Position numbers and translations under genes: made by a program. The notes under the pieces were generated by a model, which was not told the DNA's origin, made no database searches, and saw nothing but the letters and a program-made list of their open reading frames with translations. Shown one piece after another: positions 10,335 to 62,729 of a stretch of 64,000 bases of DNA; the stretch's first letter is position 1, and every line of letters begins with the position of its first letter. This stretch comes from an uncultured Bacilli bacterium (GTDB taxonomy: Bacteria > Bacillota_I > Bacilli_A > RF39 > UBA660): assembly GCA_934085825.1 (NCBI GenBank), contig CAKOHR010000004.1, forward strand, positions 33,308 through 97,307. Reading direction: 5' to 3'.

Positions 10335-11219
10335 TTAACTATCTTTTTTTACTGATGCATCATAAATTTCTGCAATTGTGCTATTTAATGTTTTTTCAAA
10401 TTCTTCATCACTCATGGTTGCATTTAATCCTTCTAGTAATGCTCTGGAAAATGATGCTATCATTTTCTTATTTTGTTTTAATTTTTCACAAGCTATGCTT
10501 CTTTCATAACCTCCAGATAAGGCTACAATTCTTAAAACATTTTTATGACGAAGTAATTCATTATAATAATTTGGAACATCTGGTAGTGTAAATTTAAATA
10601 TTAAGTAATCTTCTTTTTTGGTTTTATCTAAATTTCTTAAAATTTCACTTCTCATATAAGTTTCAATTTGCTTTTTACCCGGAGAATTAATGTCTACCTC
10701 TGGTTCTATAATAGGAATTAAACCATGAGAAATTATAATTTTTGCTAGTTTAAATTGCTCATCAATTACTTTTTTTATTCCATATTCGTTATATTCTTTT
10801 ATAACTGAACGCATCTTAGTTCCAATTATCCCATAACTTTTAGCTTTTTCTAGTCTTTCTTCTAAATTAGGTATTTCTTTTAAAAGTTGAACTCCTCCAT
10901 CTAAATCTTCTAAACCAACATCGATTTTTAAGAAACTAGGAATTCCTTTTTGTTTTAGATATTCAACCGTGTTTATACCATTAATATCTCTTTCCATTGT
11001 ATTTTCAAATAAAATTACACCTAGTATTCTATCATCAAAAGCCTTGTTTGTAATTACTCTAGAACGCATCTTATGAATGTAATCAAACATTACTTCATCA
11101 CTAGTTATTAACTCTTCACTTATTCCATACCTAGCAAGTGTTTTTTTACTACTTCCTCCACTTTGGTCTAGTGCTGCTATAAATCCTTTCTTATTTTTTA
11201 AAGTTTCAATTATTTCCAT
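10335..11219 (-). CDS. fda: Class I fructose-bisphosphate aldolase
   Basis: GFIAALDQSGGS...ILFEQTM...IIEPEV...VALSGGY motifs as in staphylococcal/clostridial class I Fda. Confidence 0.9.
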   Translation of the reverse strand: MEIIETLKNKKGFIAALDQSGGSSKKTLARYGISEELITSDEVMFDYIHKMRSRVITNKAFDDRILGVILFENTMERDINGINTVEYLKQKGIPSFLKIDVGLEDLDGGVQLLKEIPNLEERLEKAKSYGIIGTKMRSVIKEYNEYGIKKVIDEQFKLAKIIISHGLIPIIEPEVDINSPGKKQIETYMRSEILRNLDKTKKEDYLIFKFTLPDVPNYYNELLRHKNVLRIVALSGGYERSIACEKLKQNKKMIASFSRALLEGLNATMSDEEFEKTLNSTIAEIYDASVKKDS

Positions 11220-12162
11220 TTCTTACCTCCATTTTTATTAATTTTGCATGTAATACAACTCTGTCACTTTCTTTATAACATGTTGATAGAGTTAGTATTT
11301 TGTCTTTTTCATTTAAGTTTACATCAAATTTAAATTCACTTCTATTTTGAATCATATTTAAAAAGTCTATATATTTTTCATTATCATTAAAAGTTGTCTT
11401 TAGATAGTCACTTGTTTCTGGTATTCGATAAATACTAAATACTTGCCACATCGTATTTTCATATTCTGTAGAAATCTTAACAATGTGATTATTTTTATTG
11501 CTATACCAGTTGCTTTCAATTATATTTTTCAAAGAACCAAACATGGTTCCATTTATTCTTCCATGGGCATAAATTATAGTATTTTGGTCAAAGTTTTGTA
11601 AATTATTACGATAGTCCATAAATACCCAGCCTGCTGAATTATATTTCTTATTGAAATCTTTTTTTAAATAGTAGCTGTTATCAGATGTTTGAACAAATGG
11701 ATAATTAATATTTGTTCCATTTACTTGAATCCATCCTGCAGTATCATTATTTTGAACTTTTAACTGCGCAAAATCAACATTAATTAAATTCATTTTAATG
11801 TAATCCCAATATGGATTATCTAATTTCTCTTCTGGAGGATTTATTATTTGAGTATTTACTGAATCTTCTACCTCATCAACTTCTACATTTTCATTTATTT
11901 TTTCTAATTCTTTAGCAGTATTTTTATTATCAAATATCCATCTAATAATATTGCTAACTGAATAAATACTAAGTGTAGCAAATAATATAAATAACACAAT
12001 AGCATATTTCTTTTTTAATATTAGTTTCTTTTTCTTTCTTTTTAAACAAATTTCTTTGGAATTATCTTTTTCTTTTATAGTATTTTTTTCTAAAAGTCGG
12101 TTCCTTGTTTTAACCTTTTTTTTATTTGATTTATTTTTATAACTGTTTCTTTTAGCATTCAT
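11206..12162 (-). CDS. srtB: Class B sortase, membrane-anchored
   Basis: TAGWIQVNGTNINYPFVQTSDNSYYL...NTIIYAHGRINGTMFGSL...ILTLSTCYKESDRVVLHAKL (TLSTC catalytic Cys, conserved His/Arg); N-terminal basic tail plus TM. Confidence 0.8.
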   Translation of the reverse strand: MNAKRNSYKNKSNKKKVKTRNRLLEKNTIKEKDNSKEICLKRKKKKLILKKKYAIVLFILFATLSIYSVSNIIRWIFDNKNTAKELEKINENVEVDEVEDSVNTQIINPPEEKLDNPYWDYIKMNLINVDFAQLKVQNNDTAGWIQVNGTNINYPFVQTSDNSYYLKKDFNKKYNSAGWVFMDYRNNLQNFDQNTIIYAHGRINGTMFGSLKNIIESNWYSNKNNHIVKISTEYENTMWQVFSIYRIPETSDYLKTTFNDNEKYIDFLNMIQNRSEFKFDVNLNEKDKILTLSTCYKESDRVVLHAKLIKMEVRNGNN

Positions 12163-14303: not shown

Positions 14304-14450
14304 AGAACAAAACTAAATTTCTAACGAAATTCAAGTATCAGTGTTACCTCACGGTAACACTTTTCTGTTTTGCTGAAAACCAAGGCTTCCTAAGCAGATC
14401 AACTTCGGATGGTCGCCACCCTACTATTACGATTTTTTTGTTCTTATTTA
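14304..14450 (-). ncRNA. Putative TnpB omega-RNA / IS right-end region
   Basis: Region immediately 3' of and overlapping tnpB stop on minus strand, containing stable hairpins (14341-14360 and others); position matches where omega-RNAs are encoded in IS605 elements. Confidence 0.4.
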
Positions 14451-15503
14451 CATCATGCTTTCTTTCATATATATTTTCAAACCCTCAAACATTATATTTT
14501 CACTTGCGTTTATATCTCTATCATGTTCAAATCCACATCTTGGACATATCCATTTTCTTAAACTTAAATTTTTTACTTCTTCATTTTTATATTCACATCT
14601 ATTGCAAACCTCGCTACTTGGATAATATTTATTTATATTAATTACTTTTTTACCTAACCAATCTGCTTTGTATTTTAATGCGCTAAGTAAATCTCCCATT
14701 GTTACCTTATTTAAGTGTTTGGCTATGCTATGGACTTGATACATGCTTTTGACATCTAATGTTTCTACTGCTACGGTGTCATTTTCTTTTAATATTTTAT
14801 TTGCAAGTTTATATATCATATGTTTTCTGGCATTTTATATCTATTCTTACTTCCAGGTTTACATCTAGCTAAGCCTTTTTGTTATCCTTTTAATCTTTTT
14901 TCTTTTACTTTTACCTCATTTTTTAGTTTTTCTCCATATGAAGTAATTATAAAATCTTTGATGCCTAATCTAATCCCAGGATTGATGTTGGATTTATAGT
15001 TGGTTTAGTAAATAGCGTTTCTATTAATACGCTTACAAAGTATTTTTTTGCATCTTTACTAATTGTTGCTGACTTTATTTTTTTAATGTTTCTATATCCT
15101 CGAAACTTTACTTTTTTTAGTTTTGGTAATGTTATTACTTTATTTTTTAAATCTATTCTTATACTTTCATATTTAATATTTTTGTATTCATTTAATGTGT
15201 TATTTGTTGTATAACTTTCATGTTCTCCTTTTCTTCTAAATCTTGGATAAGCATTTCCACGAAAAAAGTTCTTAAATGCACCATCTAATTTAATACACAT
15301 TTTTGAAGCACACATGAATCCACTTCTTTAAGCCATTTTTTTCTTTCTTTAAATCAGTAAGTTCTTTTAACTCATCATAAGCACTTAATTTAATTTTGTT
15401 TTCTTCATATTTCTCTTTTCTTTCTGATAGGAATTTATTGAAAACAAATCTCGTACTTCAAAAATTTTTATCTATCATTATCTTTTGCTTTATATATAGT
15501 CAT
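14448..15503 (-). pseudogene. tnpB: tnpB (IS605 OrfB / RNA-guided nuclease) disrupted by frameshifts and in-frame stops
   Basis: Pieces in three frames: MTIYKAKDNDR*, ...LDGAFKNFFRGNAYPRFRRKGE...PTSILGLDLGIKDFII (RuvC-I), ...LARCKPGSKNRYKMPENI..., C-terminal piece with zinc ribbon CNRCEY...CPRCGFEHDRDINASENI. Confidence 0.7.
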
Positions 15504-52760: not shown

Positions 52761-53723
52761 TTATCTCCTAAAACTTAAATATTGAGGAATTTTTTCATCT
52801 AATTCCCTGGCATTAAAAATTACCTTAAATAAATTGTATGCTATTTTTTGATTGGAATTCTTTTTTAAAGCTTGCATTAAAATATCACTATTATCTTTAA
52901 GGCTTTTTACGCATTCTATGGGGGCTAAAGCAAAAGCAGCTCTTAAAATACAACTATCAAAAATAATTTTACTTAAAAAAGTTTTATCATGATAAATGTT
53001 ATCTTGTATTTTTTCTATTTCCTCTCCTATTATTACGAATAAACTTATAGTTTCTGATTGTTTAATCATATCGGTATATGATATTTCTGATTCATCAAGT
53101 ATATATAGACCACTTGATATGTAAGGACTTAAATTTACTTCAAAATTATTACTCATTAGTTCTTTTTCAATTGTTGGCATTACCAGTGCCATTTTATATT
53201 TGTTTTTTATCTTTTCATTTGATTCTATTAAGTATTTATTTTGTTCAAAAATACTTAAAGCAACTTTCATAATATCTGTGTACATTTCTAATATGTATAA
53301 AGAACTAGGAAAATCCTCTTTGGATGCTTTTTCATTGTTTATAGCAATTTTAACAGCGTGAATATCATTGGATACTCTTGTTTTTATCATATCATTTTCT
53401 TCATCTTTGGCAGTTGAGTGTATACCTACAGTTAAATTGTATTTTTCTTCATCTTTGGCAGTTAAGTGTATACCTACAGTTAAATTGTATTTTTCTTCCA
53501 CATAGTCTATTATCTCATTAATTTTACCAGATAATTTTAATCTTTTTAAAATATTTGTTTCTATTAATTTATTATCTTCTAAATTTTTTAATTCTACGTT
53601 GTACTCATTACTGTTTTTTAAATTGTTAATTTCTAAACGTGATAAATTTTCGTAATTTTTATATATATTACTTGCTACATTCATTAACATTTCTACATCA
53701 TAAATAATTTCTTTACTTATCAT
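52761..53723 (-). CDS. Hypothetical protein, paralog of the next gene; contains in-frame 48-nt tandem duplication
   Basis: Weak similarity to 53742-54767 product (EKYNLTVGIH vs EKYNLPISLY and surrounding). Confidence 0.5.
   Translation of the reverse strand: MISKEIIYDVEMLMNVASNIYKNYENLSRLEINNLKNSNEYNVELKNLEDNKLIETNILKRLKLSGKINEIIDYVEEKYNLTVGIHLTAKDEEKYNLTVGIHSTAKDEENDMIKTRVSNDIHAVKIAINNEKASKEDFPSSLYILEMYTDIMKVALSIFEQNKYLIESNEKIKNKYKMALVMPTIEKELMSNNFEVNLSPYISSGLYILDESEISYTDMIKQSETISLFVIIGEEIEKIQDNIYHDKTFLSKIIFDSCILRAAFALAPIECVKSLKDNSDILMQALKKNSNQKIAYNLFKVIFNARELDEKIPQYLSFRR
53397..53492. repeat. In-frame 48-nt tandem duplication (EEKYNLTVGIHLTAKD / EEKYNLTVGIHSTAKD)
   Basis: Two adjacent 48-nt units differing at one base. 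Confidence 0.8.
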
Positions 53724-53741: not shown

Positions 53742-54767
53742 TTATCTTATTAAACTTACATGTTTGGGAAGTGTTCGATCATCATCTGTTTTTTCTATTA
53801 AAGATTCTATTTTATTGATCATGTATTTAGCATCATCACAATTTTCTAGTGAATCAGTTAGATCAGTTAGAAGCGCTAATAAAAATTCTTTGTTAAATTT
53901 TAAATTTTCAGGTAAATTATAATCGCCTTCGCCATTTAGAAAATCACTTATTTTATTAATTACAATATTTGACGTTGTTTGATCAAACATTGCTAAACAG
54001 GCTCTAATACTGGATTGTAAAAATAAAGATTTCTTTTTATCTTCAGAATCATCTATTGAAAATAAATTTTGTAAATAAACATTTAAAGTTTCAATTAGAA
54101 GATTGTTAGTTAAATACTCTCCTCTTTCTTTTAATTTAGGACTATATAAAAGTACATCTCTAACTAAATAAGGATTTTCATTGATTGTGAAATTACTATA
54201 TAAAAGTTCACTTTCAATATCAGCAAGTGTAAATGATAAATTGTATTTTAACTTAATAGCTTCTTCTATATTATTTTCTGCTAATAAACTTATTGTTAAT
54301 CGAAGTAAATCTAAATGAATATTTAATTGGTATAAATAACTTGAAAATTCATATCCTTCATAGACTTCGTCTGGTAACATTTTATATAAATCTATATAAA
54401 TTTGATTCATAATTCTAGTTTGTTTTAGTTTGTCTCTTTCGGCAAATGGACTAACATATAAAGAAATTGGTAGGTTGTATTTTTCACTAAAGTGTCTATA
54501 AACATCCTCAATATGGACTGGATTTAGCAAAAAATCTAAGTGTTTTCCTTCTATTTTCAAAGCAGATTTCACTAATTTTATACCTTCTTCATATTCTTTT
54601 GTATTATTTTTACTTTGTATTTCTAAATTACATAAGCAATTATAAACATTATATAAATTTTCTACATCACTTTCTAATTCTTCCATAATTTTGATAATTT
54701 CATTATTAAGCATATTTATCCCCCTTAAATTGGCATCTATTCTACCATAATAAAAGATTAAAGTCAA
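53742..54767 (-). CDS. Hypothetical protein, paralog of 52761-53723
   Basis: ORF; similar architecture. Confidence 0.5.
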   Translation of the reverse strand: MTLIFYYGRIDANLRGINMLNNEIIKIMEELESDVENLYNVYNCLCNLEIQSKNNTKEYEEGIKLVKSALKIEGKHLDFLLNPVHIEDVYRHFSEKYNLPISLYVSPFAERDKLKQTRIMNQIYIDLYKMLPDEVYEGYEFSSYLYQLNIHLDLLRLTISLLAENNIEEAIKLKYNLSFTLADIESELLYSNFTINENPYLVRDVLLYSPKLKERGEYLTNNLLIETLNVYLQNLFSIDDSEDKKKSLFLQSSIRACLAMFDQTTSNIVINKISDFLNGEGDYNLPENLKFNKEFLLALLTDLTDSLENCDDAKYMINKIESLIEKTDDDRTLPKHVSLIR

Positions 54768-54772
54768 ACACT

Positions 54773-56257
54773 TTAATCTCTTGGTTTCATTGTTGGGAAT
54801 AATATTACTTCGCGAATTGTTTCTTGTTCTGTGAAAAACATTACAAGTCTATCAATACCATAACCGATGCCTCCAGCTGGTGGCATTCCATATTCTAAAG
54901 CTTCAATGAAGTCCATATCTATATCATTGGCTTCATCATTTCCTAAATCTCTTTCTTTTAATTGTTCTTCAAATCTTTCTAATTGATCAATTGGATCATT
55001 TAATTCTGTATAGGCATTGGCAAATTCTTTTCCTCCAATAAATAATTCAAATCTATCAACAAATCTTGGATCTTTTGGATTTTTCTTGGTAAGTGGTGAT
55101 ATTTCTACTGGATGGCCATATAAGAATGTTGGCTCTATTAATGTTTCTTCAACATATTTTTCAAAAAATAAGTTAATTATGTGCCCAACATTTTTTTCAT
55201 GATCTGCTACTTCAATTTTGTGTTCTTCTGCAAGTTTTAGAGCTTCATCTACTGTCATTTCTTTTGAAAAGTCAATTCCAATTTTTTCTTTTATTGCATC
55301 AACCATAGAAATTCTTTTCCAAGGTCCTTCAAGGCTAATTTCATTTCCGCCCCAGTTATATGTCATTTTGCCTATTACTTCTCTAGCTATCTTCGTAAAC
55401 ATAGCTTCAGTCATATCCATCATGCCTTCAAGATTGCTATAAGCAAGGTAGGCTTCCATTAAAGTAAATTCTGGATTATGTTTTGTATCCATTCCTTCGT
55501 TTCTAAATACTCTACCTATTTCATATACGGCTTCCATCCCTCCTACTAAAAGTCTTTTTAGTGGAAGCTCTAGTGCAATGCGTAAATACATATCTATGTC
55601 TTGTGTATTATGATGGGTTACAAACGGTCTTGCGCTAGCTCCAGTTAAAAGTGTTGTTAAAACTGGTGTTTCAACTTCTGTAAATCCACGACCATCCATA
55701 AAGTTTTGAATGCATCTAATAATTTTAGGTCTAGTAAAAGCTACATTTCTAGCATCTTCATTCATTATTAAATCAACGTATCTACGACGATATCTTTCTT
55801 CAGTATCTGTTAGGCCATGGAATTTTTCTGGAAGTGGTGTTAAAGCTTTAACTAAATGTGTATATTCTAGGCATTTAATTGTTACTTCTCCAGTTCTTGT
55901 TTTCATAATCTTTCCATGTACACCAACTATATCCCCTAAATCAGCTGATTTAAATAGGTTATAAACTTCTTCTCCAACATCGTTTATTGATATATATATT
56001 TGAATACTTCCTGTTTTGTCTTGAATTGTAAAAAATGACGCTTTTCCCATTTTTCTTATAAACATTATACGTCCTGCAACTGTTGCAGTATCTTCCATAT
56101 TTTCAAAGTCATCATGAGGAACATCAATATATTTTTCTTTTAAATCCTTCGAATAAGCATTTCTTTCAAATCTATGTCCAAATGGATCTATTCCCATTTC
56201 ACGAATTTTTTCAGCTTTTTCTCTTCTAACTAATTGTTGTTCTGTTAATTCTATCAT
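54773..56257 (-). CDS. lysS: Lysyl-tRNA synthetase (class II)
   Basis: 494 aa with OB-fold N-domain and class II catalytic core motifs. Confidence 0.9.
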
Positions 56258-56327
56258 ATTTTATCCTCCATCTGGTGTTATTTTAACACAAAAAAACAAT
56301 CTTGCAAACAAGATTGTTAAAAATTTG

Positions 56328-56885
56328 TTATATTTTATACATTTTTTTATTTTTCTTAGTTACGCTATAAATTACTCCAGCTCCTATAACTCCACAACCA
56401 ATAATTGCAATTGGAAGTGCAGCTCCTGTTTTAGTTTCAGTAGTAGTTTCAATAGTTACTGTTACTTCGTTACCTACAGATGGATTAGTTAATTTCAAAC
56501 TACAATCAGCTGCTGATGATTCAAGTTCCAAAGTTATTGTTGCTAATGTAAAGTTTGATTCTGTTACACCGTCAGTTGATACAAAGTTGATTGGAATAGT
56601 TGAATTTGCAAGATCTGAATCAGTTGGAGATACTTTTGTCCATCCATCGCCAGGAGTAAAACTTGTTATTGTTGCACCTTCCCCAACAACTACAAGATTT
56701 GCTTGAAATGTTGTCATTGTTGCATTGTTGTCTTTTACTGAAATAGTACATGTTGATGTACACTTTCCTTCACTAGTTGGACAACTTTTAGAACACTTAT
56801 TATCCAAACTTGTTGCACTAACGCCCATAGGCATAATAACTATAGCCATAACTAATGCTATAAATCTAATAAATTTTTTCACCAC
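56328..56885 (-). CDS. Small Cys-rich cell-surface protein with C-terminal sortase sorting signal (TETKTG + TM + KKNKK)
   Basis: Signal peptide, ...TETKTGAALPIAIIGCGVIGAGVIYSVTKKNKKMYKI; terminator CAATCTTGTTTGCAAGATTG+U downstream. Confidence 0.6.
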   Translation of the reverse strand: MVKKFIRFIALVMAIVIMPMGVSATSLDNKCSKSCPTSEGKCTSTCTISVKDNNATMTTFQANLVVVGEGATITSFTPGDGWTKVSPTDSDLANSTIPINFVSTDGVTESNFTLATITLELESSAADCSLKLTNPSVGNEVTVTIETTTETKTGAALPIAIIGCGVIGAGVIYSVTKKNKKMYKI

Positions 56886-57014
56886 TATATCTCTCCTTAT
56901 CTTTAGTATGTCTAAATTATATCATAAAAATACAAAAAACAACATATTTTTTACAAAATTATATTAAAAAATGTAAAATTGTGTTATTATAATAAAGTAA
57001 TAGGATTTGAGAAT

Positions 57015-58595
57015 ATGAAAAAATTATTGTTTAAAATTAAAGATAATGCTTTAGTTATTAAAGAAAAGGTAAGATTAAGTAATACAAATAAAAATTTACT
57101 TAATACTAATGTAATTAGTTCTGATGAACTAATATTTTCTCTTGATTATTTAAATAATAATATTAAAATTACTTCAACGTTTATAAAAGAATTAACTAAT
57201 GATTATAATATTGATACATTGATTGTTGAAAAAATGGAATTTGTAGAAACACTACTTAATATATTAAAAAATAATACCAATATTATAAATATGGTAATTA
57301 AAGAAGATGTTCAGCTAACTTTTAAACTTTGTGAACTTATAGTTAAAACTAGTATTAAGAACGTTGATTGTTATAATTTACAACCTTTTATGATTGAATA
57401 TTTGGATAAATATAACGTCTTGGTAGAGTCAAGAAATGAAATTCTCTATTTATCTAATTTCATGATTCAAAATAATTTGAGTGTTTTTTCAAGTATGTTT
57501 TATAAAATGACTACTCAAATTGATCTACCTATGTCTCATCAAGATGAAGAAGATTTTGAAGCTTTTATAAAAATTAATAAATATTTAAAAACAATTAATG
57601 TTAATTATGTAAATAAAAATGACCTAGAATATATAATTGGTATTTTAAGAAAAAACAATAAGAAAAACATTAAAATTATTATTCATGATAATATTTCTAA
57701 TGAAGAAACAATTGATTACCTTAGAGAATTTAATAAAAGAAAAAGTAAACGTTATAAAATATATTTTAGACTTGAGTATAGTAATGAATATTTAAAAGAT
57801 AATCTTTTGAAACAAACTAATAATAGTATTTTAAAGACATGTGGTTATATTATTATTTTAATTATTTTGGTATTATTTATATATGTTTTTTATGATAATT
57901 ACCGATCAATGAAAAATGATGAAGATACTAAAGCCAGTATTAAAAAAATCATAAATTTAGAAGATACGGAAACTATTATTAACGATATGAATAAAGATGT
58001 AACAGATGATAATAATAAAGTTATTAATAAGGATGTTGCAAGTGTTTTCAAAAATATAAATCCTCAGACTGTTGGATGGCTTAAAGTACCAAATACAAAT
58101 ATTGATTATCCAGTAGTACAAGCAGATAATAATAGCTATTATCTAAATCATAACCTTTTTATGAAAGATGATAAAAATGGTTGGGTTTTTATGGATTTTC
58201 GAAGTGATGCTGTAAATTTAAGCGACAATGTTGTTATTTATGCACATAATAGATATTATAATGGTATAATGTTTGGAAATTTACAAAATATGATGAGATA
58301 TAATTGGTATAGTAATCCTGATAATCAGATAATTAGTTTTAAAACTTTAACTGAAACTTATGAATATCAAATATTTTCTCTTTATAAAATAGAAACAACA
58401 GTTGATTATCTTGACGTTATATTTCCGAATGCTGAAAGTAAAATGAAAATGTTTAATTTAGTAAAGAGTCGTAGTATTTATAATTTTAATGTTGATTTAA
58501 ATGAAAATGATAAAATAATCACTCTTTCTACTTGTGCAGATGAAAATAATAAGTATGTTGTTCATGCTGTTCTTAAACAAACGAAAACTAGCTAG
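57015..58595 (+). CDS. srtB: Class B sortase with ~290-aa N-terminal cytoplasmic extension and single TM
   Basis: C-terminal domain VGWLKVPNTNIDYPVVQADNNSYYL...NVVIYAHNRYYNGIMFGNL...IITLSTCADENNKYVVHAVL; TM ILKTCGYIIILIILVLFIYVF; track ORF begins 56979. Confidence 0.75.
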   Translation: MKKLLFKIKDNALVIKEKVRLSNTNKNLLNTNVISSDELIFSLDYLNNNIKITSTFIKELTNDYNIDTLIVEKMEFVETLLNILKNNTNIINMVIKEDVQLTFKLCELIVKTSIKNVDCYNLQPFMIEYLDKYNVLVESRNEILYLSNFMIQNNLSVFSSMFYKMTTQIDLPMSHQDEEDFEAFIKINKYLKTINVNYVNKNDLEYIIGILRKNNKKNIKIIIHDNISNEETIDYLREFNKRKSKRYKIYFRLEYSNEYLKDNLLKQTNNSILKTCGYIIILIILVLFIYVFYDNYRSMKNDEDTKASIKKIINLEDTETIINDMNKDVTDDNNKVINKDVASVFKNINPQTVGWLKVPNTNIDYPVVQADNNSYYLNHNLFMKDDKNGWVFMDFRSDAVNLSDNVVIYAHNRYYNGIMFGNLQNMMRYNWYSNPDNQIISFKTLTETYEYQIFSLYKIETTVDYLDVIFPNAESKMKMFNLVKSRSIYNFNVDLNENDKIITLSTCADENNKYVVHAVLKQTKTS

Positions 58596-58596
58596 A

Positions 58597-59631
58597 TTAA
58601 TTAAACCTGCTAGTTTTTTTTATTCTGTTATAAACAAATTCTTCAGTATCGTAATAAGGATTTAATCTTCTAAGTAATGTTATATTACCATTTTTTTTGA
58701 AATTATCTCTTTTATCTTCAAGTTCAAATTCTTCTAAATTACCGTTGCTTTCAATAAATATATTTATTATTTTAAGACCAAATTCACTTTTATTTAAAAA
58801 TTTATTACGTAATTCATAAATGTCACAGCGTTCAAAATATGGAAGTAAATCAAAATATTTAGCAAATTCACTATTTTCTTTGTTCTTTTCAATTATTAAT
58901 AGTTCATAAACATTTGACATTATATAACTTAAAAATAAAGTCATTTGAGTTTCATTATTTCTAAATTGTTCCTTTATATTTTCAACTATTAGAGTATACT
59001 CATATATATCTTTTGTTTCATGGTTTTCTTTTTTCCCATCTTTATTTTCTAGAGCATCAGATAAAGATTTATAGTAAATGTCAAAGAAAATTTGAATATA
59101 CTTTTCTGATTCTATTAATTTATCATCTGGTATATAATCCCATATATCTAGAATTTCCAAAGGATTTATTTTTAGTAAATTCTTTAATTTATTATTTTCA
59201 ATGATTGCTTCCTTAGCTTTAGATTTAAATATGTATGGTCTTTCTGTGTATGTTAAAAAATCTTCAATAATATCATCTGTTGTAGATGTTGGTCTATAAA
59301 ACATATCTATTATCTCATTTTTATCTGAGTTTTCTAATTCTTTAAGTGTATTTTCACAGTATGAAATATTTATTTTATGCTGATACTCATAATGGTTTAA
59401 TATATAAGCCTTACTTGCTATTATAAACATCATTATTTTTTTACAAACATTTATGTCTATGTTGCTTTGTTTTAAATGTTTTTGCCATTCATTATTAAAC
59501 ATGCTTTCTTTATTTGTTAACACATCTGTAATAATTGCTTTTATAATTTTTACATTATTTGTATATTTGTTATTGATGCTGTATAAGAAAAATATAAATG
59601 AATCGTAACTTATGTTATATAAATTTTGCAT
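58597..59631 (-). CDS. Hypothetical cytoplasmic protein
   Basis: ORF only. Confidence 0.4.
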   Translation of the reverse strand: MQNLYNISYDSFIFFLYSINNKYTNNVKIIKAIITDVLTNKESMFNNEWQKHLKQSNIDINVCKKIMMFIIASKAYILNHYEYQHKINISYCENTLKELENSDKNEIIDMFYRPTSTTDDIIEDFLTYTERPYIFKSKAKEAIIENNKLKNLLKINPLEILDIWDYIPDDKLIESEKYIQIFFDIYYKSLSDALENKDGKKENHETKDIYEYTLIVENIKEQFRNNETQMTLFLSYIMSNVYELLIIEKNKENSEFAKYFDLLPYFERCDIYELRNKFLNKSEFGLKIINIFIESNGNLEEFELEDKRDNFKKNGNITLLRRLNPYYDTEEFVYNRIKKTSRFN

Positions 59632-59651
59632 AAATCCCCCATGCCCTTTAA

Positions 59652-60431
59652 CTAAATTTGTTTGGTGCTTTCATATCTGTAATGCCCATCTTCATAACAA
59701 AATTTATGTTCATATTTTTTTAATTTATCTTTATAATCTTTAATATTTAGGTTCTCACTATAAGTTATATTATTATTTATGCTCTCACTTTGTCCTTCAT
59801 TATCATAACATAATTTAGTTGTTTTGTTGCATTTTAAGAAGTATTCAATTATTTTGATTGATTCATTTCCATTTTCCACGGTATAGCTTTCTAATCCTTT
59901 AAAGTATACTATATTGGAATCATAACTATTATTTGCTTCATAAATATATATATAATTATAATCATCTTTTATTTTTGCACTCTTTGTTTCATCAATTTTA
60001 AAATCTATAATATAATAGTTCGTTTTTCCAAATATATATTCCACTGTTTTTAAAAAATATTCTTTATCAATTTTATAAAGAAGTTTATATTCTTCCCCTA
60101 CTAAATTTTCATCTTCTTTGGTTATGCTTTCAAATTTAAAATTGTCAGTTCTTTCAATGTAATTGTAGGCAATTAATGACATATCTGTATAGTTTATATT
60201 AGTGTTAGAAACATAGCTTCCCATATAAAATGTGGTATTATTATTTATATTTTTTTCAGGAAATAATTTGTATAGCTCATTAATTTCTGTTTCAGTAACT
60301 TCGGGGTATTCTGTTGTTATTTTTTTATCAAATTTGAATATTTTTGTAAATAAAAATACTATGAGTAATGCTGTTATAAATACAATAATATATAATACAG
60401 ATTTTTTTCCATTTTTCATTTTTATCACCAT
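59652..60431 (-). CDS. Hypothetical membrane-anchored/exported protein
   Basis: N-terminal TM VLYIIVFITALLIVFLF. Confidence 0.45.
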   Translation of the reverse strand: MVIKMKNGKKSVLYIIVFITALLIVFLFTKIFKFDKKITTEYPEVTETEINELYKLFPEKNINNNTTFYMGSYVSNTNINYTDMSLIAYNYIERTDNFKFESITKEDENLVGEEYKLLYKIDKEYFLKTVEYIFGKTNYYIIDFKIDETKSAKIKDDYNYIYIYEANNSYDSNIVYFKGLESYTVENGNESIKIIEYFLKCNKTTKLCYDNEGQSESINNNITYSENLNIKDYKDKLKKYEHKFCYEDGHYRYESTKQI

Positions 60432-60481
60432 TAAATTAATTTTATCATGAACAACTTATCATTACAAGAAAAAAAAGAAGA

Positions 60482-61834
60482 TTACTCTTCATTTTCTGTT
60501 TGAGTATAACTTCTTATAAATGATGGCGTATATCCTTTTGAATCTTTGTATATTGTTTGAATGTCTTGGTATGCAGTTGGAAATTCTCCGCCATTTTCTG
60601 TTTTTAAAGTATCTAAACTTAAATCAGTAGAAATTTCCAAAGTATATTTATTATCATTATATTTGGCTGTACCTGTTATACCATCAAATGTAATTGTACT
60701 TTCTTTATCTTTAACTACTTCATTATACGCTGCGGCACTTTCAAAAACGTACTTGTAATCACGACGTGCTACGCCTTGAAAAGCTAAAGTTTGATTTATT
60801 GGGAAAATATCACTTATAGTCTTTTTAGCTTTATAATCCGTCAAATTTTCTTCTACACTTGTAAAGTTAGCGAATAAAGAAATTGGATCTGGTGTTACAT
60901 ATAATGTAGCGGTATAATTTGCTGTATTTCCAGCGTCATCTTTGGCTTCAATAACTATATCATATGGTCCTCCAGCAGTAGCTAAATATTCTTTTAACTT
61001 AGTTTCATCAGCAAAACTAGTTTTACAATTTGATGGATCTGTACAACTTTTAACAAAGTCTTCTACTACTGTGGTACTATTTAATGATTTAAATACTACA
61101 TTTAAAGTTACTTCGGGAGCTGTTTTATCACTTACTATTACTTTAGTAGTAAAACTTTCCTTTCCACATACTATAGTGGCTTCATATTCGCCTATTGTTG
61201 ATGTATCAACATTTCTGGTATTGACACTGCAGGCACTGGCATCACCTTTATTTATTGTTGCATATTCTTTGATACCATCTGGTACTGATTCTCCTACACC
61301 TATACTTACAGTTTTAGGAGTAAGCTTTACCATATTATTACTAATACTTAAGAAATAATAAACACCAAATGCTACAGCCCCAATTAATACTATTATTAAT
61401 ATTACAAATAAAAATTTACTCATCGGCTTCTTTGGCTTTGTTTCATTATTTTGAGGTGGAACAATACCAATATTTTCCATTTTATTTGAATTTGTAAAGC
61501 CATTTATATTTCCGCTTGGTGTAAAACTATTATTAGCACCAACAGTATTACCAGTTAATGTTCCTTCTGTACCAGGTATTGGCCTTGCAACTGGTTCACT
61601 TGGTGTAACTGGGTCTAAACTTTCAACTGACGATGCCATATTTTGTGGATTATTAGGCATTTGCATCGGATTTGGTACACTATTTCCTACTACATTTGGT
61701 GTTGGTGTTGGATTTATATTATTTTGACCCATGTTAGGTACATTTTGAGCCATACCTAATGTAGTGGATCCTAAAGTTTCGCTATTTAGTCCATTATTTG
61801 TGCCATTATTTAAATTAGAATTTTGCCCATTCAT
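60482..61834 (-). CDS. Bitopic membrane protein: Asn/Pro/Gly-rich disordered cytoplasmic N-terminus, TM, extracellular beta-rich domain
   Basis: Low-complexity first ~140 aa, TM FLFVILIIVLIGAVAFGVYYF. Confidence 0.5.
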   Translation of the reverse strand: MNGQNSNLNNGTNNGLNSETLGSTTLGMAQNVPNMGQNNINPTPTPNVVGNSVPNPMQMPNNPQNMASSVESLDPVTPSEPVARPIPGTEGTLTGNTVGANNSFTPSGNINGFTNSNKMENIGIVPPQNNETKPKKPMSKFLFVILIIVLIGAVAFGVYYFLSISNNMVKLTPKTVSIGVGESVPDGIKEYATINKGDASACSVNTRNVDTSTIGEYEATIVCGKESFTTKVIVSDKTAPEVTLNVVFKSLNSTTVVEDFVKSCTDPSNCKTSFADETKLKEYLATAGGPYDIVIEAKDDAGNTANYTATLYVTPDPISLFANFTSVEENLTDYKAKKTISDIFPINQTLAFQGVARRDYKYVFESAAAYNEVVKDKESTITFDGITGTAKYNDNKYTLEISTDLSLDTLKTENGGEFPTAYQDIQTIYKDSKGYTPSFIRSYTQTENEE

Positions 61835-62577: not shown

Positions 62578-62729
62578 AACAATAATGTTACTCTTTTCTT
62601 TAATTTTACATTTTTTTCTAATTTAAAACAACATATATCATTTAATTATTAAAAGTCGACACTTTTTAACATTTTATATACAAATTTAAAAAAATATATT
62701 ATACTTATTGTATAGAAAACGAGGTAAAA

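Follow-up and report, generated by a model that had tools for sequence, protein, structure and literature searches.

A class-B-type sortase with a predicted repeat-like cytoplasmic domain, divergently paired with a surface protein in uncultured Bacilli

Sortases are generally seen as simple ectoenzymes, with substrate choice placed in an extracellular pentapeptide and their cytoplasmic stubs ignored. What, then, is a sortase doing with a large domain across the membrane from its active site? The question is raised by a locus in a 64,000-nucleotide stretch of contig CAKOHR010000004.1 from an uncultured Bacilli bacterium (hereafter the window; G+C 27%), where a sortase gene (57015..58595, plus strand) encoding a 526-residue fusion protein stands back to back with the gene of a small exported protein (56328..56885, minus strand). 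The reading that we favour, with moderate confidence, is that these two genes form a module made of a dedicated class-B sortase and its substrate, with the cytoplasmic repeat domain of the enzyme acting as a docking site.

A sortase with a cytoplasmic N-terminal domain

The sortase open reading frame (stop codon included) is unbroken and free of internal stops, and every homologue begins with MKK at the same ATG. Pfam Sortase (PF04203) matches residues 356-520 at E 1.7e-14, with 54 bits against a cut-off of 26.6 and hence above the gathering score. A phmmer search of the Protein Data Bank (PDB) and an alignment to a second sortase of the window place the catalytic domain at residues 346-520 (58050..58574), and its best matches are the SrtB enzymes of Bacillus anthracis, Staphylococcus aureus, Clostridioides difficile and Listeria monocytogenes (E 2e-28 to 5e-26). 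The counterpart of catalytic His411 (58245-58247) in B. anthracis SrtB is the His of ILYGH; catalytic Cys507 (58533-58535) lies in the motif TLSTC (residues 503-507). TIGR03064 (srtB) scores 145.5 bits on residues 274-512, marginally below its equivalog cut-off of 153.75, and the position of the canonical active-site Arg is held by Lys513 (58551-58553). Since the protein misses both the cut-off, if marginally, and the Arg, we regard it as a class-B-type variant rather than as a SrtB equivalog.

A hydropathy scan finds a single hydrophobic segment (residues ~270-298), whose transmembrane core at residues 276-293 (CGYIIILIILVLFIYVFY; 57840..57893) is the sole Kyte-Doolittle peak of the protein; relatives have a transmembrane helix too. 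The linker from this helix to the catalytic domain (residues ~294-345) is variable. Because there is one helix and no signal peptide, and because sortase chemistry takes place outside the membrane, residues 1-272 (57015..57830; the N-domain) would be cytoplasmic, giving an N-in topology with the catalytic domain outside. The initial annotation had described a TLSTC-bearing class B sortase with an N-terminal domain across the membrane from its catalytic domain, and this stands, with the side of the membrane inferred; the domain is indeed large, and its size comes down from ~290 to ~272 residues, the transmembrane core starting at 276. The SrtB enzymes of S. aureus and B. anthracis (TIGR03064; MEROPS C60B) share the homologous catalytic domain, the His and TLSTC Cys and the N-terminal membrane anchor, which is here a predicted one. 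The window enzyme departs from them not only in its TIGR03064 score and in Lys513 but in having, where they have a short stub, a 272-residue cytoplasmic domain that is predicted to be folded.

The window also holds a conventional counterpart. The second sortase (11206-12162, minus strand; 318 residues) is 46% identical to the catalytic domain and consists of a highly basic 50-residue N-terminal stub, one transmembrane helix and a sortase domain with TLSTC and the canonical Arg, and its TIGR03064 score of 166.1 bits clears the cut-off. It lacks the N-domain, in agreement with the earlier remark that housekeeping sortases carry no such extension. Its gene is flanked by those of a class I fructose-bisphosphate aldolase and a dCMP-deaminase-like protein, and no substrate gene is adjacent.

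What kind of domain is it? An AlphaFold2 model based on a 76-sequence alignment (mean pLDDT 88, pTM 0.75) opens with a beta-hairpin, which gives way to a loop of low confidence (residues 23-34) and then to eight strand-helix units with a period of 20-30 residues; the predicted strands start at residues 68, 92, 116, 136, 166, 193, 219 and 249, and a helix comes after every one of them. The last predicted helix (257-274) runs directly into the transmembrane segment, and the domain would therefore lie against the inner face of the membrane. The top Foldseek matches in the PDB are the leucine-rich repeats (LRRs) of NLRP3, NLRP1, NLRP7 and NLRP2, together with the tropomodulin C-terminal domain, ribonuclease inhibitor and SKP2; these have probabilities of 0.8-0.99, but E-values of 6.5e-4 to 3e-2 and TM-scores of 0.25-0.29, and other alpha/beta repeat folds follow at lower ranks. 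No consistent Pfam or NCBIfam family was found on the window N-domain and 40 diverse members, sequence and profile searches of the PDB with the family gave no match, and segment-versus-segment comparison with hhalign did not detect internal repeats (probabilities of at most 5%). The suggestion in the initial annotation that the region might be repeat-like thus holds for the predicted fold and fails for the sequence. Like the ribonuclease-inhibitor (RI)-type LRRs of NLRP3, tropomodulin and SKP2, the domain is predicted to be a strand/helix solenoid with conserved Asn and hydrophobic positions; unlike them, it has low TM-scores and no sequence similarity to any LRR family, and it is bacterial, membrane-tethered and fused to an ectoenzyme. 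On the strength of the model, we think that the N-domain is probably an RI-type LRR-like solenoid of about eight units.

Several positions of the domain are conserved family-wide: the motif L-N-N-T-N-[VI]-I at residues 28-34, asparagines N49, N153 and N188, the acidic pair D177/D180, and a juxtamembrane helix face formed by Y255, Y259, N263, K266 and Q267. The NTNVI part of the motif (residues 30-34, window 57102-57116) falls inside the only low-confidence loop of the model and is a candidate interaction or hinge site.

The fused architecture is widespread. With the complete protein as query, more than 100 clusters (504-588 residues) matched over 99-100% of its length at 54-100% identity; with residues 1-275 alone, HMMER recovered 160 proteins at E <= 0.001 from an exhaustive comparison with 1.84 billion representatives. 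Counted as clusters at 50% identity, the N-domain family has about 160 members, every one of them from low-GC bacteria not in culture, with the human gut as the source of many; the closest relatives of the window come from metagenome-assembled genomes of human gut and rumen samples, labelled as uncultured Bacilli, 'Tenericutes', Erysipelotrichaceae or Firmicutes bacterium CAG:460. All 53 full-length relatives (representatives at 50% identity, 486-565 residues) have the N-domain at residues 1 to ~275 and then the sortase region, with a catalytic-Cys motif of the form [TS][LI][ST][TS]C in 52 of them, and the order of domain, helix and sortase is kept from 100% down to ~24% N-domain identity. The remaining matches were short-contig fragments or spurious repeat matches, and a word-index homology search with the N-domain alignment yielded mainly fragments. 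Two multi-stretch matches (P0249 and P0269) were rejected, the one as a repeat protein of insect-allergen type from a eukaryote, the other as spurious.

Two members stand apart. The relative without the catalytic Cys (P0180, 519 residues) reads TLTTF at the motif, with Phe in place of Cys, and is either an inactive pseudo-sortase or the product of a sequencing error. In another (P0325, 496 residues) the first ~225 residues of the N-domain lead not to a transmembrane helix and sortase but to a BspA-type LRR_5 region, which makes it a different architecture or a chimeric assembly; since its LRR_5 match (PF13306) sits in the unrelated C-terminal part of a probably chimeric protein, we did not accept it as evidence for an LRR fold of the N-domain.

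Breadth of this kind bears on whether the fusion is an artefact, with the N-terminal region a separate gene or two genes joined by mis-assembly. A distant locus (L130, protein P0311) lends this some colour: its sortase gene has a single in-frame TAA between the transmembrane-linker region and the catalytic domain (L130 6075-6101). The stop is one codon, the reading frame runs on past it, and it looks like a pseudogene or a sequencing error rather than a split system. Set against that single case are the intact reading frame of the window and more than 150 independent clusters from many samples that share the layout at lengths of 510-565 residues, and we give an artefact next to no credence. 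The N-domain appears to be previously undescribed; public annotation, where present, reads only 'class B sortase', and a literature search for N-terminally extended or LRR-fused sortases found no relevant description.

The divergent partner and its sorting signal

The neighbouring gene encodes 185 residues (stop codon included in its coordinates) from a GTG start preceded by an AAGGAG ribosome-binding site, and a terminator-like hairpin with a T-run (56295..56318, minus strand) follows directly 3' of it. Residues 1-24 (MVKKFIRFIALVMAIVIMPMGVSA; 56814..56885) read as a signal peptide with a basic n-region and a hydrophobic core, conserved in the substrate alignment, ending in MPMGVSA and apparently cleaved between VSA and TS. 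The passenger domain follows (residues 25-149, 56439..56813), and the protein has cysteines at positions 31, 35, 42, 46 and 128. Its C-terminus reads ETKTG-AALPIAIIGCGVIGAGVIYSV-T-KKNKKMYKI, that is, a sorting pentapeptide (residues 150-154, 56424..56438) with predicted cleavage between Thr153 and Gly154, a hydrophobic membrane-spanning part (155-175, 56361..56423) and a cytoplasmic tail (177-185, 56331..56357). ETKTG lies 32-36 residues from the C-terminus and is followed by 21 hydrophobic residues and KKNKK, as expected of a tripartite sorting signal (PMC4155245). The sequence agrees with the initial annotation in all these respects: a small, Cys-rich, exported neighbour ending in TETKTG, a hydrophobic stretch and KKNKK.

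The passenger may be a cohesin-like or CLIPPER-like beta-sandwich. Its AlphaFold2 model has a pLDDT of 68 overall and of 80-89 in the core. In the PDB, Foldseek aligns it with cohesin modules and with a CLIPPER adhesin domain, at E-values of 2e-5 to 1e-3 and TM-scores on the target of up to 0.68; these share the type of beta-sandwich predicted here. The window passenger differs from them in carrying an extra N-terminal CxxxC...CxxxC hairpin, in having no known dockerin partner and in sequence; a Pfam search with the substrate, and sequence and profile searches of the PDB, found no match. Among the 33 clusters of substrate homologues (36-98% identity) the passenger is variable, whereas T153, G154, A155 and the pair L157-P158 never change and the C-terminal nine residues hardly do. 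The position of ETKTG is filled in relatives by TTKTG, TVKTG, QTKTG, NPSTG or PPKTG.

Is this protein the substrate of the enzyme encoded beside it? In the loci closest to the window (L001-L005 and L007-L011) the gene order u320/u341, lysS, substrate (minus), sortase (plus), u344, u259 is kept, with u450 and u225 next wherever the loci L001-L011 reach that far; L006, a 4-kb contig, holds only the sortase, u344 and u259. Pairing of this kind extends over L001-L014, and eight of the ten lineages examined further out share it. Beyond the closest clade, at ~60% N-domain identity, the divergent neighbour is a 183-residue protein with PPKTG...KKNKKLYKI (L013), and at 55% (L012) and 44% (L020) the neighbours have 192 residues each and end in TPNTG...KKNTKLYKI and SPKTG...KRKTKIHHI. 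At 37% they have 288 residues with ENTITG...KKNNRLQKI (L021) and 273 with NPGTG...KSNKFTKI (L025). Further out come two Flg_new proteins with NPTTG...KKKDLFRQL and KKKKGYLQF (L023, 31%), a 242-residue protein with NPKTG...KKKKFI (L130, ~31%), a 665-residue SpaA/pilin-like protein with NPRTG...KKTDKRSAFSRI (L024, 26%) and a 494-residue TED+SpaA adhesin with NPDTG...NKKNKFKKI (L016, 25%). The same divergent position thus holds non-homologous cargo. From the signals of these neighbours we infer that the ancestral signal of the family was NPxTG or (S/P)PxTG, of class B type, and that ETKTG is a Pro-less derivative. The neighbour had earlier been called a plausible dedicated substrate, and it gains in plausibility from a divergent pairing kept across lineages and from the alignment of ETKTG with NPSTG, PPKTG, SPKTG, TPNTG and NPxTG.

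Known systems offer partial precedents. The SrtB enzymes of S. aureus (NPQTN) and B. anthracis (NPKTG) also have parallels in motif, as relatives of the window module use NPxTG and one (L130) has NPKTG itself, and as in those systems the gene of the (here putative) substrate is adjacent; the window substrate differs in its motif without Pro and in lying outside any iron or haem (isd) context. SrtB of C. difficile cleaves SPKTG, PPKTG, SPSTG and SPQTG between T and G (PMC4155245). It too belongs to class B and comes from an anaerobe of low G+C, and SPKTG and PPKTG recur verbatim in the partners of extended sortases (L020 and L013); it is, in contrast, a single housekeeping sortase with several scattered substrates of varying tails (PMC4155245), whereas the window enzyme exists in addition to a conventional SrtB, appears to be specialised, and combines a neighbouring putative substrate of invariant tail with an added cytoplasmic domain. 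The closest analogy in organisation may be with dedicated sortase-target pairs, such as the class C sortases of pili or the LPKTxAVK-specific SrtB NF040525, in which a specialised sortase is encoded next to the protein that it serves and a general sortase is present as well. The window sortase reaches only 47.8 bits against the NF040525 cut-off of 200, and no pilin operon accompanies the module as it does the class C enzymes. To our knowledge, the dedicated sortases described so far have no large cytoplasmic domain.

The pilin-like cargo raises the question of whether the enzyme polymerises its neighbour into a fibre, instead of or besides anchoring it. A class B sortase, Spy0129, polymerises the pili of Streptococcus pyogenes, partners in distant lineages are of SpaA, TED or pilin-D1 type, two invariant lysines in the N-terminal hairpin of the substrate (K33 and K41) are potential nucleophiles, and a conventional SrtB is at hand for final anchoring. 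The locus, against this, has one substrate gene only. Pfam gives the window substrate neither a SpaA nor a pilin domain, we recognised neither a pilin motif nor an E-box, and the passenger looks cohesin-like rather than pilin-like. We consider polymerisation unlikely.

Two possible sites of recognition

If the neighbour is the substrate, what would the cytoplasmic domain contribute? Our proposal starts from the tail. In the 13 loci compared, the substrate ends in K-K-N-[KT]-K-[MIL]-Y-K-I, which makes the tail the most conserved part of the protein, above the pentapeptide, and synonymous differences at the codons for N, Y, K and I indicate that the constraint acts on the protein. We scanned JGI metagenome contigs for DNA encoding KKN[KTN]KxYKI followed by a stop and analysed 80 of the 103 stretches found, of which 43 encode proteins with a genuine cell wall sorting signal. 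Upstream sequence of 500 bp or more was available for 32 of these tail-bearing genes, and 26 of the 32 have an extended sortase divergently adjacent; so do two further genes with shorter flanks. The cargo comprises the cohesin-like family (ETKTG, EVETG, DVDTG) and a family of 307-318 residues (STETG, ETETG, NVPSG); beside extended sortases, the pentapeptide ranges over ETKTG, EVETG, DVDTG, STETG, NVPSG and NPxTG.

The sequence of events that we have in mind is the following. The sortase would sit N-in, with its catalytic domain outside and its LRR-like solenoid on the inner membrane face, as the model suggests. The solenoid would bind the substrate tail, KKNKKxYKI-COOH, and hold the precursor beside the enzyme, which, by analogy with its class, would cleave its neighbour between Thr153 and Gly154 of ETKTG and transfer the cohesin-like passenger to a peptidoglycan precursor. 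Tail docking would supply the specificity lost from the degenerate extracellular pentapeptide, and the ordinary SrtB (11206-12162) would serve other surface proteins. That the N-domain is a protein-docking module for the short, invariant cytoplasmic tail of the substrate is a tentative suggestion. We prefer it because of the invariance of the tail, its association with extended sortases across different cargo and the degeneracy of the pentapeptide; because a nine-residue tail can reach only a domain apposed to the membrane; and because a conserved acidic motif in the domain would face a tail of charge +5. Its corollary, that sortase specificity in these bacteria is read on both sides of the membrane, with the tail as a sequence-specific address and not a generic stop-transfer element, is put forward with the same reserve. 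Two-sided reading, if true, would explain how the pentapeptide could decay freely (ETKTG, EVETG, STETG, NVPSG) and how Lys could come to stand for the catalytic Arg.

The main rival holds that the solenoid makes no contact with the tail and is a localisation or scaffolding module, tethering the sortase to a cytoplasmic or membrane machine such as the divisome, a wall-synthesis complex or the Sec translocon, which would confine anchoring to one set place. LRR-type solenoids, to which the fold matches point, are generic protein-binding modules, and a domain kept alongside very different cargo, in two cases with no adjacent substrate at all, fits a partner that does not depend on cargo. Kline and colleagues reportedly found in 2009 that cytoplasmic basic residues direct the focal localisation of sortases in Enterococcus faecalis. 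Beyond the close clade, on the other hand, no conserved third gene accompanies the module, and localisation leaves an invariant tail beside a drifting pentapeptide unexplained. We hold localisation to be about as likely as docking on the tail, at a level of belief well short of even.

The enzyme itself has a peculiarity that any reading has to accommodate. In the alignments Lys513, in NKYVVHA, occupies the place that Arg has in B. anthracis SrtB (GRLVVHA) and in the conventional SrtB of the window (DRVVLHA). Among 170 relatives this position is Arg in 140, Lys in 29 and His in one, and the Lys forms are made up of the window's own clade (27 of the 27 clusters scored, at or above ~66% identity) and two distant members. 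Changing the corresponding Arg to Lys or Ala strongly reduces the activity of S. aureus SrtA, and our search of the literature on the R197K substitution found nothing relevant. Could the substitution have crippled the enzyme, leaving a holder or slow releaser whose substrate stays membrane-anchored through its C-terminal helix? The presence of Lys in every clade cluster scored and the loss of the motif Pro from most clade substrates would fit. Yet His411, Cys507 and the rest of the domain are strongly conserved, T-G-A..LP is invariant in the substrate, Lys retains the positive charge, and the two losses do not go together as joint decay would have it: one locus combines Lys with NPSTG (L004), and two combine Arg with the Pro-less EVETG (L100 and L115). 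The same three loci led us to reject a coupling of Lys513 to the loss of Pro. We judge a crippled enzyme very improbable and, since the change is fixed in a domain that is otherwise conserved, provisionally take the Lys513 enzyme to be active.

Several observations weigh against docking on the tail, and against the module as we read it. The tail scan was seeded with the family's own tail, so that the association with extended sortases is partly circular. Five of its six exceptions belong to one NPQTG family of 235-246 residues, encoded far from any sortase. In distant lineages the tail diverges, to KKKDLFRQL, KKTDKRSAFSRI or KSNKFTKI, most tails in the most distant ones still closing with a basic residue and then I, L or F. 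Two extended sortases, in L019 and L022, have no adjacent substrate candidate. The LRR assignment comes from one AlphaFold2 model with TM-scores of 0.25-0.29 and has no sequence-level support. Lys513, finally, replaces an Arg that is otherwise near-universal in sortases, and activity in the window clade is accordingly not assured.

The NPQTG proteins deserve a word of their own. They are Cys-rich and exported and end in AKKNTKIYKI (L047, L063, L075, L087 and L102; for instance L063 6129-6836), and their genes lie beside rpsF-ssb in loci that contain no sortase at all. They may be further substrates, encoded away from the enzyme. The substrate tails of C. difficile SrtB differ among themselves (...CKIKRN, ...KRRKMKKS; PMC4155245).

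Control region, gene neighbourhood and significance

Conservation at the locus extends to the DNA between the two genes. The divergent region measures 129 bp from start to start (56886-57014), rather than the 90 bp first given; it would come to 93 bp only if a non-conserved TTG at 56979 were the start of the sortase. Its identity to the window is 97-99% in L001-L005, 86-90% in L007-L011 and L035, and 85-86% in L013, L100 and L115. Over those comparisons the genes themselves are less alike, with a nucleotide identity of 70-84% for the sortase gene and 54-73% for the substrate gene, and codons at identical amino acids match in only 56-73% of cases. Another divergent spacer of about this length (62578-62729), taken as a control, has 69-71% identity to L001-L003, and short spacers nearby are 71-94% identical. 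Within the region lies an almost invariant core of 54 nucleotides (56899-56952), inside which we read a candidate extended -10 element for the substrate gene (TGATATAAT, 56924 to 56916, minus strand); a TATAAT at 56988-56993 (plus strand) may serve the sortase gene. A consensus promoter scan of the region returned promoter-like sites no more often than shuffled sequence. An Rfam search of the spacer gave no match at E up to 1, its predicted RNA folds were no better than those of shuffles (z-scores -0.25 to -1.45), its inverted repeats are short and consist of A and T only, and the core does not recur elsewhere in the window. A riboswitch or structured leader was rejected for want of an Rfam match and of a significant fold. 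Given these results and the failure of the core to recur, the constraint most likely acts on the DNA, as back-to-back promoters with a putative factor-binding site.

The initial annotation had supposed a regulated or signal-responsive module. Regulation has its one line of support in the unusually strong conservation of the intergenic DNA; for signal response, neither a sensor nor an enzyme signature was found. The stronger form of that idea, in which the N-domain would be a sensor switching sortase activity on a cytoplasmic signal, can appeal to the size and good conservation of the domain and to a control region so constrained that the module is probably regulated at some level. But the domain bears no ligand-binding, kinase, cyclase or receiver signature, no regulator gene is adjacent, no riboswitch or structured leader is present, a single transmembrane helix gives little route for allosteric transmission, and conserved DNA argues for transcriptional control and not for gating of the enzyme. 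We rate a sensor as distinctly unlikely.

The genes around the module hold some features of their own. The lysyl-tRNA synthetase encoded by lysS (54773-56257, minus strand) is 96% identical in L001-L003 and only 41-43% in L004-L011, in the same position throughout L001-L011 and beside sortases that are 70-82% identical; this looks like an in-place replacement by a distant homologue. Beyond it lie tandem paralogues of 320 and 341 residues (52761-53723 and 53742-54767, both minus strand; 28% identical over ~200 residues, E 2e-14), which have no Pfam or NCBIfam match and are syntenic with the module in close relatives. Downstream of the sortase gene and convergent with it are three conserved, function-unassigned genes (58597-61834, minus strand): u344, of 344 residues and cytoplasmic, with its stop codon 1 nt from that of the sortase; u259, with an N-terminal transmembrane helix; and u450, with an Asn/Pro-rich N-terminus, a transmembrane helix and an outside domain. 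Their synteny holds to ~60% sortase identity and not further. Elsewhere in the window, open reading frames at 14448-14819 and 14965-15315 (both minus strand) are TnpB or Cas12f-like (IS605 OrfB) fragments, the first with a TNB zinc-ribbon domain (E 4.6e-21), and the TnpB-like gene appears to be broken up.

The presence of a conserved cytoplasmic domain of ~270 residues on a sortase suggests that the anchoring of surface proteins in these bacteria is coupled to something inside the cell. Should the domain indeed read the tail, sortase-mediated sorting and ligation would gain a second determinant of specificity, orthogonal to the first; the family would explain dedicated sortase-substrate pairs with degenerate motifs, and would offer a natural Arg-to-Lys active-site variant for study. 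The module also provides a first way into the surface display of gut Bacilli with reduced genomes, a group without cultured representatives.

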